From assembly GCA_964016885.1 (NCBI GenBank), contig OZ024740.1:152768001-152832000 (forward strand): a stretch of DNA of 64,000 nt, in the 5' to 3' direction. The translations under genes and the position numbers were made by a program. Positions within the stretch are counted from its first letter, which is position 1. Each line of letters begins with the position of its first letter. This DNA is from Eledone cirrhosa (lineage: Eukaryota). The notes below the pieces were generated by a model. That model saw nothing but the letters and a program-made list of their open reading frames with translations. It did no database searches and was not told the origin of the DNA. This document shows, piece after piece, positions 13,902 to 32,745 of the stretch.

Positions 13902-14015
13902 ACCAAAACGACAGTTAGCTGATATGCGAGCGGCTGAATATCGGGCACTGATAGGGTTAACCAGAAAAGTGACATGTGTTGAAGTAGCATGTGGGTTAGT
14001 TGATATTGAAAAGAG
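13902..14015 (+). CDS. Neuropeptide precursor exon A (PXXXamide/PTH-like): (R)PKR-QLADMRAAEYRALIGLTRKVTCVEVACGLVDIEK(S)
   Basis: Acceptor ctccttcctacag|, donor AG|gtatag, 114 nt, phase 2/2; KR followed by Gln; two Cys; clear paralogue of exon B. Confidence 0.88.
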
Positions 14016-14802
14016 GTATAGTAAACTTTTTTTCAGCCTGCCCGCCCGAAAAAAACACCTTCCATTACTTAGTCAAAACTGAAACTTAACCCCTTTTATG
14101 ACCTTCCTGACTCAAACCCTGAACCAATTGGTCAAATGCATCACTATTGGATAAATGCATTATTATTCTCTTTTTTTATTATTCTGCAATTTATCAATGA
14201 CACATTCTCTCATTTTACACGACACCATACTTTCTGTACTTAACGAATTGGCAGAGTGGTAAGAGTGACGGATTAAATGAATCTGTATTTGTCCCGGCTC
14301 GCTGTGCTCTGAGGTGAAATCGGCCGAAGCTAATTTTGCCTTTTATCCTTCGTGGATGACAGGTCGTTGGATTAGCGAAATTGCTGAAAGAAACCGGAAG
14401 TGGGTGTTTTGCGGTAGCTCATCCAGTTCTGTGAATTCTTAGTCCAAATATCACCTTCTGCCCGAAGTTACGACCGGCAAATAATATCAACAATGGAAAT
14501 ACCAATGCCAACATAGTTTACTTCGTTCTTTCCTTTTTCTTTGTATTTGTCTATATGTGTGTATATATATATATATATATATATATATATATATATATAT
14601 ATAGAGAGAGAGAGAGAGAGAGAGAGAGAGAGAGAGAGAGAGAGAGAGAGAGAGATGGAGAATGTGTAATGGTTAGTAACATATAGTTACTGTTGGTTAA
14701 GCAGTTTGAGCACACAATGCAAAATATTTGGATTCGGCTACCGATGTCGGATTCTACGTTTGGTATTTCGCCATAGACGGTATCCTTAAGAAGCAACGTG
14801 AT

Positions 14803-14910
14803 AATAATAATTACTTCAACATTTGGTATACGGCCAGCAATTTAAAGTGGAAAGTCGATTAAATCGACCCCAGTGCATTACTGGTGCTTTATTTTATCGA
14901 CCCTGAAATG
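14803..14910 (-). mobile_element. SINE family A, 3' part
   Basis: gtcgattaaatcgaccccagtgcattactggtgctttattttatcgaccc. Confidence 0.75.
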
Positions 14911-15150
14911 ATGTGTGTGTGTGTGTGTGTGTGTGTGTGTGTTCGTGCATACCTATATATATGAACAGTATGTCAGCTGGCCATTGGAGGAGCAACATCA
15001 AAACATACCGAGACATACCACACGTTGAACAAAAGATTACACTGTCTTATTTGGTCGTATCTATTACATAACAGATACCCCTGAAATACATATAACATTT
15101 AATCAATAAAATGATGTAAGATTCAAGCACACAAACTTCTTCATTATCGG

Positions 15151-15550
15151 TGGATTGGCAGTATCGGTAGAGGGTCGGACGCCATGCTTTGCAGCATAGA
15201 GTTACGTCCCTTTACGATCTGAGTTCAAATCCCGCCGAGGTTGACTTTGCCTTTCATCCTTACGGGGTCGATAAAATAAAGCACCAGTAATGCACTGGGG
15301 TCGATTTAATCGACTTTTCCCTCCCCTCAAATTGTTAAAGAAAATTATGTTATGCTATAATATTTTTAAGTGAATATGTTTGCAACAGCTTTGGTTTTGA
15401 AAGAGTTAAAATAGTATATAAATGTTGTTAACATTTAACTACTAACAGTAAGATCTTTTTTTCTCTCTTAACTGTTACTTTTCATCAACTATTGTTTCGG
15501 ATGTTTTAGTGGTAAAAAAAAACGTGTGCCCAAAGTAGAAACAATTATTA
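15151..15550 (+). mobile_element. tRNA-derived SINE family A (Deu/Nin-like central domain) containing a ~190 bp captured host intron/exon piece
   Basis: tggcagtatcggta (box-A-like), gagttcaaatcc (box B), gcctttcatccttacggggtcgataaaataaagcaccag; the SINE tail resumes at 15526. Confidence 0.85.
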
Positions 15551-15555
15551 TATAA
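15510..15555 (+). CDS. Possible alternative terminal exon C': (S)GKKKRVPKVETIII*
   Basis: Duplicate of the exon C acceptor (cggatgttttag|) and first 16 nt, in frame, finished by SINE tail sequence ending in TAA. Confidence 0.45.
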
Positions 15556-16054
15556 ACATATTTAAATGTGAGTGTCCATAAATGTATGCCTCTTTCTTCC
15601 TCATCTCATAATAAATGCATATTTCAGTTTGCTTTGACCATTTGTTATCTTACCTACCACTGTTCAGCTTCATTGAAAGAAAATCCCACACCCTACAACG
15701 CAACGTACCTATCATAGTTACCATTACCCATGTTTATTTTATATATATGGTCTGTTGTGGTCCACCTGGTTCCTTACCACACTTGCTTCGTTATATATAT
15801 ATATATATTATATATATATAGTAGTGTCCTACATTTTACCCTGTTGTTCATATAATCTAATCATATTTGTTATATATTTAATGAAGAGATAAATGTTATG
15901 TTTACTTGTGTGGTTTCATTATTATGTTGTTGTTTTCATACATATTGTTACTTTCACTTTCAATTTACTATATTGTTTTGTTTCTCAATGTGTCGAATTG
16001 TTCTGTTACTTAAACGTTGATGTCCCACTTGTGTGTTGTTTTACCTGTTTACAG

Positions 16055-16174
16055 ATCAAAGCGCCAGACAGGCGACATAAAAACAGCCGAATACCAAGCC
16101 TGGTTGGCACTTGGTGGCATTGTACCACCGGGTTGTGTCGAGGTTGCCTGTGGGGTAGTCGATGTACACGCCAG
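16055..16174 (+). CDS. Neuropeptide precursor exon B (PXXXamide/PTH-like): (R)SKR-QTGDIKTAEYQAWLALGGIVPPGCVEVACGVVDVHA(S)
   Basis: Acceptor ttttacctgtttacag|, donor AG|gtacag, 120 nt, phase 2/2; shares KRQxxDxxxAEYxA and CVEVACGxVD with exon A. Confidence 0.88.
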
Positions 16175-16318
16175 GTACAGTAAAATAAAAGCATAAAGCA
16201 AAATTCTTGATGACTTAGATATGAAAATTTCCATTGTTTGGAAAATAAATCAAACATTGCTCTCTCTATCTCTTCTCTCTTTGCTGATATATATATAATA
16301 TATATATATATATATATA

Positions 16319-29930: not shown

Positions 29931-30810
29931 GTGCGTGTGCGTGTATGTTTAAATATATGTATAGAGTTAGATAGGTAGATGCATTTGCTTTGATTGTAAA
30001 AGAAACTATGCATCATAAAGGAGCTCGCGGTATCTCTCAACAAGAAAGTCGACATGAATTCCTGCTATCACCTTAGAGAAACTTATATGCTAGGTAAATA
30101 CAAGCCAACCGATGTTGAAAATATCACCATGGAAAGGGATGCCACAGGAAACATCAGGGATAATCAGTGAGTTACCTCCCTTACTATGAAAATTAACTTC
30201 AGTGGATTTGCCTCCCTTGCATTCAACACTGACGTGCTGTGACTAGCAGCAGGTTTAACCGTATTCTATCATGTTACCTGGTATACCCACATTTCAAATC
30301 AAATGTGTTCCAAACCTCACTACGATACGTATTGTGTGGTCCTTCCTTTGTTTGTACAGCTGTATGTGGCGGGGAGGGGGGTACATATATTCATAGTAAT
30401 GTTGAGTTGTAGATTTATAGTAACAAAAAAAACATTTACACATAGGACAACTGCATATACATGTCGCTTGATTTACTAGTAACTAGTAACAATGGATAAT
30501 TCATTCACTCACATGTGTATATATATCCCCACACGCCTATACACACGCTATATATGTATATATGCTCTCTTTTGATCAAAGTTTACATGCATATGTAACA
30601 CACACAGATACACACACATGTACACACACGGACTCACAGAGATACAGAGGCACAGACACACACGCAGTATATTACACCTGCTCACACGTAATTATCTTTA
30701 AACTCGTAAAATCATATTTAATTACTCCATATATGTTTAAATTGTTTATTGTAACAGTTTTTAACTCTTTCCACGCCAATAGCTAGTGACAGCATTGAAA
30801 TAACTACCAC

Positions 30811-30876
30811 TAGTAGTAGTAGTAGTAGTAGTAGTAGTAGTAGTAGTAGTAGTAGTAGTAGTAGTAGTAGTAGTAG
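30811..30876. repeat. (TAG)n microsatellite
   Basis: Directly visible; (TA)n, (CA)n and (GA)n tracts are too numerous to list. Confidence 0.95.
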
Positions 30877-31276
30877 ATCATTTCACATCGGTCCATTGAT
30901 TAGTTGGGTGACTTCGTTAAGATTTCCATCCTCATAAATGGGAAATTAATTTTGGTGTATATATATATATATTAAAATAACAGATTAAAGTTTAAGCAAA
31001 GAATCGCTGCTTTCACCCTTAACGGGATCTTCTGAAACTTCAATGCTCTACGGTTCTTATATACCTGATATATATTTATCCTTATCGAGCCCTCTTTGGA
31101 TTTTAGTCTTCAAATTTATTATTATTACTATATATATATATATATATATATATATATATATATATATATATATATATAGACATTCGATCGACTTTCGTCA
31201 AATCAGACCGAGGAAACAATGTTTCCAGTGGGCTTTCCAAATGCTAATACTTTCTATCGGTCGCAACTCCAGGTAG

Positions 31277-31390
31277 AAGGAGCAACGTGAAATAAAGTGT
31301 CTTGCCCAAGGACATAACGCACAGCCCGGTCCAGGAATCGAACTCACAGCCTCAGGATTGCGAATCCAATTATCTAACCACTCAGACACG
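31277..31390 (-). mobile_element. SINE family B, 5' tRNA-like head
   Basis: ggagcaacgtgaaataaagtgtcttgcccaagg..ggaatcgaactc..ctaaccact. Confidence 0.75.
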
Positions 31391-31809
31391 CTGATTTCAG
31401 CTCAATATTGTAAGTTGTCTTTCCCTATTATATTTGCCAGCATTTCAGTTGGTTAGGAATTTCAATAGCAAGCGAAATGAAGGAAAAAATATTGTTTCAT
31501 AAATGTAATATTACTTTTCCTACACATCTGGCACATAACGAGTTATATAAAACATATATGTGAGAGGAAGAAAATATTATACACGACATATCCTCGATAA
31601 TAGCTGTTCAACGTGTTCTCAAACACCTTATTAATACGTTTACCTAATTAATGGGCATGTCAGAAATAGCAGTAAAAACAATCATCAAATTCAGCCTTCC
31701 TTACCTAAGCGAAATATACGTTCAAACATATTTTAGACACACCGTATCCGGAAAATTTGACCTTATATTTATGAGGTCAGGTAAAACATTTTAAATATAG
31801 ACTAACATT

Positions 31810-31968
31810 GTCGGACATGCTTCATGGCACAGAGTTAAGATCCTTTACGTTCTGAGTTCAAATCCCGGCGAGGTTAGCTTTGCCTTTCATCCTTACGGGG
31901 TCGATAAAATAAAGCACCAGTAATGCACTGGGGTCGATTTAATCGACTTTTCCCTCCCCTCAAATTGT
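31810..31968 (+). mobile_element. SINE family A immediately upstream of exon C
   Basis: Near identical to 15208-15335. Confidence 0.85.
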
Positions 31969-32157
31969 TAAAGAAAATTATGTTATGCTATAATATTTTT
32001 AAGTGAATATTCTTTTTAAAAAAATGTTTGCAACAGCTTTGGTTTTGAAAGAGTTAAAATAGTATATAAATGTTGTTAACATTTAACTACTAACAGTAAG
32101 ATCTTTTTTTCTCTCTTAACTGTTACTTTTCATCAACTATTGTTTCGGATGTTTTAG

Positions 32158-32263
32158 TGGTAAGAAAAAACGTAATGACATATCAAGTGATGATATCAGA
32201 CGTTCAATTCTGGCCCAAAGACTGATACAATTTGCAGCAGAGAGACTTGCAAAGACGGAGTAA
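32158..32263 (+). CDS. Neuropeptide precursor last coding exon C: (S)GKKKRNDISSDDIRRSILAQRLIQFAAERLAKTE*
   Basis: Acceptor gatgttttag|; the first T completes AG-T (Ser), followed by an amidation Gly and KKKR; stop ends at 32263; strong donor G|gtaaga at 32275/32276. Confidence 0.88.
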
Positions 32264-32745
32264 TCTATAGAAATGGTAAGATATTTTTACCTCTCTCCAC
32301 TTGACTTCACCTCTCTCTCTCTCTCTCTCTCTCTCTCTCTCTCTCTCTCTCTCTCTCTCTCTCTTCATATATATATATATGAAATTATATATATATATAT
32401 ATATATATATTTATAATAAATAAATACATATATATATATATATATATATATATATATATATGCATGATATATTAAACGTAAGTTAAAATCTCATTTGGGG
32501 GGATACAAGCTAAAACGGCTAAAATAAATCGGTTTTACTTATATAATACCTCGACCATGGTTTCTGGAACTCAGGAAACATCGGCAATTACTTGTATATA
32601 TATATATATATATATATATATATATATATATATATATATATATATATATATATATACATATATATATATATATATATATATATGTAATAGAAAAAATCAG
32701 AGAAGTTTCGTTTACATATTAAAAAAATATCTATTGTGTATCAAA

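Follow-up and report, generated by a model that had tools for sequence, protein, structure and literature searches.

The stretch of DNA considered here (the window) comprises 64,000 nucleotides (nt) of Eledone cirrhosa, contig positions 152768001-152832000 of OZ024740.1 in the 3.0 Gb assembly GCA_964016885.1; 200 kb of upstream sequence was fetched in addition. It harbours a neuropeptide precursor gene in which a signal-peptide exon (E1), located upstream of the window, is followed by three cassette exons of the same phase (A, B and D) and by a shared exon (C), which supplies the amidation signal. A duplicate of the exon C acceptor, here called C', is found between A and B (Table 1). Its protein identities mark the locus as the iPTH/QSamide/PXXXamide precursor gene of octopus, an ortholog of a gene already published. 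The original prediction for this DNA had recognized a neuropeptide precursor with same-phase cassettes, PXXXamide/iPTH kinship and an amide provided by exon C, all of which is borne out, and the lengths, AG/GT ends, phases and quoted peptides of A and B are as it described them. The signal-peptide exon expected upstream was likewise found. The prediction had counted two peptide exons, missing exon D, and had also overlooked the acceptor copy C'. Nor is the gene "hidden", as had been supposed: three Octopus bimaculoides isoforms are listed in S1 Table of PMC7224569, and cassette splicing of the oyster gene is described in PMC8398477.

Table 1. Coding exons of the precursor gene and elements of the C' duplication (window positions unless stated otherwise).
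Feature	Position	Strand	Remarks
Signal-peptide exon E1	contig 152764411-152764499, 3.6 kb before window	+	89 coding nt, phase-2 donor
Intron after E1 (in-window part)	1..13901	+	total intron 17,402 nt
Cassette exon A	13902..14015	+	114 nt, phase 2/2, AG/GT ends; KR and QSamide-type peptide
SINE-like high-copy repeat	15148..15552	+	has a head (15148-15244) and a tail (from 15526) of its own on either side of the C' tract
C' tract	15245..15525	+	281-nt copy of ~31878-32173, a region that extends 16 nt into exon C
Possible exon C'	15510..15567	+	acceptor of exon C, GKKKR, 9 repeat-derived codons, stop 15553-15555
Cassette exon B	16055..16174	+	120 nt, phase 2/2, AG/GT ends; KR and QSamide-type peptide
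Cassette exon D	23029..23127	+	99 nt, phase 2/2; KR and iPTH/PXXXamide-type peptide; from motif scan
Truncated copy of SINE-like repeat	31810..31968	+	upstream of exon C; likely template of C' tract
Shared exon C	32158..32275	+	completes last residue, GKKKR, then C-terminal associated peptide

Each cassette opens with its own dibasic KR, which precedes the mature peptide, and ends two bases into a codon; the Gly for amidation is contributed by exon C, whose initial GKKKR is in frame with all three cassettes. As predicted, exon C completes the terminal Ser and supplies GKKKR; its stop codon occupies 32261-32263 and, given the donor at 32276, its end had been placed correctly. The phase-2 donor of E1 is compatible with A, B and D alike. 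The hydrophobic core of the signal peptide was recognized by eye, without a predictor, and E1 matches the N-terminus of the O. bimaculoides RefSeq protein XP_014776777.1 at 25/29 residues. An acceptor abuts the ATG of E1 and a donor is present 12 nt past the stop codon of exon C, which points to a non-coding exon upstream of E1 and a 3' untranslated exon after C.

The 35,658 nt from E1 to C were scanned for the combination of an acceptor, KR or RR, an open frame and a phase-2 donor. Seven matches were obtained, four of them on A, B and D; the remaining three (one at 2709, two at 27303) were dismissed by eye as unlike the family. Since the scan matches fall on these exons and B is identical to a database protein at 39/39 residues, A and B are not chance occurrences. 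Exon A as a query against the whole assembly matched at A and B only. Donor strength was expressed as the number of matches to nine consensus positions, and the donors of the gene's own five exons score 8, 5, 6, 7 and 7 (5 for A, 6 for B). Two cassettes contain further potential donors. In exon A, an in-frame internal donor at 13995 (6/9 vs 5/9 for the real one) would, if used, truncate the peptide right after its second Cys. In exon D, a second, weaker GT donor is located 4 nt downstream (23128-23132; 5/9); its use, or intron retention, would reach a stop codon and yield a peptide end without amidation, and the supplement of PMC8557429 includes a Lingula isoform with a similar ending.

Orthology is most readily seen in comparison with O. 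bimaculoides, for which S1 Table of Xie et al. 2020 (PMC7224569) gives three iPTH/PXXXamide transcripts, which begin and end with the same exons and differ in carrying A, B or D; the same table includes corresponding sets for Sepia, Lottia, Crassostrea, Lingula, Phoronis and annelids. Exons A, B and D correspond to O. bimaculoides transcripts 1, 2 and 3, respectively. Against XP_014776777.1 (LOC106873782), B is identical at 39/39 residues, D at 32/32 and C at 32/34, and a second, single-cassette database relative shows the same values for B (39/39) and C (32/34). Similarly, B is identical at 36/36 residues to O. bimaculoides and O. vulgaris, and D at 28-29/29 to O. sinensis and O. bimaculoides. 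Exon A shares 27/34 residues with two O. sinensis models. In O. bimaculoides we thus see the same gene: its first and last coding exons correspond, as do its three alternative peptides, with B and D identical in protein. The two species differ at 6/35 residues of A (counted by eye), 4/29 of E1 and 2/34 of C, which marks the present sequence as that of another octopod, and C' occurs in none of the models compared.

Database models of the gene are still labelled "uncharacterized" or "hypothetical", and Pfam returned no family for CAI9723493.1, XP_014776777.1, one O. sinensis model or exons B and D; a SelB match of exon A was below threshold and was taken as chance. The octopus peptides had no counterpart in the accessible part of the PMC6425005 supplements. 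O. vulgaris has a second, diverged A-B-D set (CAI9723493.1), the model of which is without signal or C exon, and O. sinensis has two loci. A search of the E. cirrhosa assembly for a second set of this kind returned only A, B and D, the counts being lower bounds. Within exon A (13912-14013) there is an internal RK pair where O. sinensis has RN. Recent gene conversion between A and B was considered as the source of their common CVEVACG and rejected, as 4/7 codons differ at the third position.

The three cassettes encode two kinds of peptide. Those of A and B have, by eye, an N-terminal Gln, a Cys pair (C-x4-C) before G-x-x-D and a C-terminal Ser before the Gly, and counting confirms the predicted lengths of 35 and 37 residues and the six-residue ring. 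The exon D peptide is devoid of Cys and has an SDQR motif; Ser-Asp near the N-terminus is restricted to D, and A has AD and B has GD in its place. According to the alignment in the supplement of PMC8398477, A and B belong to the QSamide type and D to the iPTH/PXXXamide type. It had been remarked that neither A nor B possesses the eponymous Pro at position -4. This is correct, but the family call was incomplete, given that A and B represent the QSamide branch, which accounts for their missing Pro, and that D is without Pro as well. The literal label PXXXamide consequently does not fit the sequence, while membership in the family does, because the identical O. bimaculoides D peptide is listed there. 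Indeed, Pro at -4 is described by Xie et al. as only mildly conserved, and the precursor features which their text names for the family are a signal peptide, KR and strictly conserved Gly plus basic residues (PMC7224569). Thiel et al. 2021 equate iPTH/PXXXamide with QSGamide (PMC8557429).

We consider it highly probable that the locus is a precursor gene whose cassettes A, B and D are spliced to the shared exon C, with the last cassette being amidated and a PTH-receptor-like class B G-protein-coupled receptor as the likely target. Splicing would join E1 to one or more of A, B and D and then to C, and the cassette nearest to C would be amidated by means of the exon C GKKKR under standard prohormone processing. 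The forms E1-A-C, E1-B-C and E1-D-C would give three amides of 35, 37 and 30 residues, the last of them a predicted Ile-amide, and pyroglutamate and a disulfide bridge are to be expected in the A and B peptides. In a joined messenger RNA (mRNA) the upstream peptide would be released unamidated and with a short C-terminal change; an A-B join would leave A in this state, as originally predicted, Gly being present in exon C only. Exon choice would hence decide which peptide is amidated, because each cassette has its own KR but no Gly. The receptor assignment is drawn from the beetle Tribolium, where iPTH activates the class B1 receptors iPTHR1/2 with half-maximal effective concentrations of 63 and 413 nM (PMC7224569), and the octopus peptides probably act on receptors of the same kind. 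In the openly accessible literature that was searched, we found neither a receptor assay for molluscan peptides of the iPTH/QSamide family nor a paper devoted to the octopus iPTH/QSamide gene.

The C' tract interrupts a repeat which, from its length and copy number, is termed SINE-like (resembling a short interspersed nuclear element, SINE). In a self-comparison of the window, the tract and its source at exon C are identical apart from a 15-nt gap and a single silent substitution; differences between the two sides are frequent upstream of 15245. The repeat was compared with the 28 other copies in 264 kb that align over 100 nt or more. For the middle part of C' (15245-15332) the copy at exon C ranks 1/28, with 88/88 positions identical, vs 24/28 for the head of the C' repeat and 27/28 for its tail. 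The unique 190 nt of the tract occur at exactly two places in the assembly, namely C' and exon C. This anatomy suggests that C' likely arose by long-tract gene conversion between two SINE-like copies 16.6 kb apart: the repeat at 15.2 kb would have suffered a break and been repaired from the copy at 31.8 kb, with synthesis extending ~200 nt past it before returning to the repeat's own tail. The alternative of a 3' transduction of the exon-C repeat copy was rejected, as the C' repeat keeps its own head and tail. C' was found neither in print nor in database models of the gene, no literature search having been aimed at it and subscription papers lying outside the coverage, and it is likely lineage-specific.

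Gene conversion would leave C' as a recent by-product, most likely silent or minor. It is compatible with this explanation, and in our view rather doubtful, that C' is a used exon in this lineage, one that would equip A with an amidation signal of its own. C' could then serve as a terminal exon, with the transcript ending near the AATAAA at 15610, or as a 58-nt cassette whose stop codon would also trigger nonsense-mediated decay. Its acceptor and the intron sequence before it equal those of exon C, and no other acceptor of this kind is nearer to A (1,494 nt). The reading frame continues from E1 and A, and the GKKKR is intact. Moreover, 58 nt past the acceptor, at 15568, there is a donor (AAT/GTGAGT) that matches 8/9 consensus positions, equal to or above all five donors of the gene itself, and a donor of this quality follows at a distance of 30-150 nt at ~3% of positions in the 264 kb. 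The donor score, however, was noticed after the fact, an AATAAA that close is found at ~18% of positions, and an intact frame is expected in so young a copy and hence is no sign of selection. The structure of the tract is also that of a repair accident within a repeat, and the C' tail ends none of the eight database relatives (0/8), none of which is known to be from this species. It is with the same reserve that we entertain the possibility of a working exon made beside A by repeat gene conversion, that is, an alternative last exon or poison exon and a calcitonin/CGRP-like switch at its birth.

For the cassettes themselves, optional inclusion of one or more per mRNA is likely and is favoured here over strict exclusion, because neither frame nor intron size constrains their joining and joined forms exist in relatives, in oyster and in Phoronis. 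The accessible part of PMC8398477 reports that splicing of one oyster gene yields QSamide or PXXXamide peptides, either alone or in joined form, and that mass spectrometry detected every mature peptide except one; the supplement of PMC8557429 contains three Phoronis transcriptome isoforms, one of them joined. Of 36 candidates, eight database relatives were returned and scored for cassette number. Three have a single cassette, one of these being a complete spliced reading frame from a contig of 1,223 nt; five have two or three (XP_014776777.1 and CAI9723493.1 among them), a count that probably overstates joining as the models are mostly gene predictions, which tend to chain same-phase exons. 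Mutually exclusive splicing, as originally proposed, with exactly one cassette in every mRNA, would agree with the single-cassette relatives and with S1 Table of PMC7224569, in which three O. bimaculoides and two Sepia transcripts each include one cassette. It is nevertheless improbable: introns of 2,039 nt (A-B) and 6,854 nt (B-D) impose no steric block, the cassette lengths are all multiples of three and carry no frame penalty, and joined forms are seen in the oyster and Phoronis transcripts as well as in the five database models.

Besides the inflated joined count, several points weigh against the precursor as we have reconstructed it. Its splicing in E. cirrhosa is read from genomic sequence, the three sequencing runs compared being one sample that behaves as DNA, and A and B have weak donors. 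In S1 Table (PMC7224569), "transcript found" is noted for some oyster entries but not for those of O. bimaculoides. Thiel et al. 2021 regard PTH-type receptor pairing as unproven in Lophotrochozoa (PMC8557429), and molluscs have several Cluster B receptors, the cluster being expanded (PMC7200681). Finally, exon A has diverged further from its orthologs than B or D. Taken with its donor, the weakest of the gene, this divergence (27/34 to O. sinensis vs near-invariant B and D) could indicate that A is losing its function in this lineage, with only B and D in use. We hold this to be very improbable, for A retains an intact frame and two intact splice sites as well as its KR, Gln and Cys pair, its first 13 residues are unchanged and its substitutions are mostly conservative.

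It is also very improbable that C' is an assembly artefact: it is located in a very high-copy repeat and the sole contig crossing its right junction does so by 27 nt, under the 31-nt standard, but C' differs from C by the 15-nt gap and one base change, and the contig with the 15 nt accounts for only part of the depth in 3/3 runs of one sample (15.2/21.6, 12.5/19.2 and 6.7/11.8), so that a form without the 15 nt would also be present, a weak argument in that contig depth is no copy number and that the sample may be the source of the assembly.

Elsewhere in the first coding intron, a LINE-type retroelement (LINE, long interspersed nuclear element), split into several frames, lies antisense to the gene at 1833-4878 of the window (- strand) and matches zf-RVT, RVT_1 and Exo_endo_phos in Pfam. 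Relatives of this element with 73-80% identity are found at ~52.3-55.3 kb and 60.8-62.9 kb, and the open reading frames scanned in these two copies gave no Pfam match.

Published work already covers the precursor, its three isoforms in octopus and cassette splicing in this family, and the C' duplicate is the only addition to that picture. The gene offers a test case in two respects, namely whether QSamide- and iPTH-type peptides of one lophotrochozoan gene share Cluster B receptors, and whether splicing may control activity by setting which peptide is amidated. If C' were used, it would illustrate cleanly how gene conversion between repeats can create a new functional exon.

In the vertebrate calcitonin/CGRP gene, exon choice sets the amidated peptide and each peptide exon has its own amidation signal. 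The octopus gene resembles it in that exon choice would decide which peptide is amidated, and C', if used, would provide an alternative last exon; the peptides, however, are unrelated, and the amidation signal of the octopus gene is shared. Closer is the QSamide3/PXXXamide gene of Crassostrea gigas, for which the accessible part of PMC8398477 describes one precursor, QSamide/PXXXamide peptides occurring single or joined, and a shared amidation exon. By contrast, the oyster entries of S1 Table (PMC7224569) comprise one Cys-type and two PXXXamide-type cassettes, whereas the octopus gene has two Cys-type cassettes and one of the iPTH type, none with Pro at -4. With Tribolium iPTH, as presented in PMC7224569, the octopus precursor has in common the signal peptide, KR, mature peptide and Gly plus basic residues, and exon D additionally the conserved SD motif; the Cys pair of the octopus A and B peptides is not present in the D-type peptide, and receptor pairing is shown there for the beetle only.

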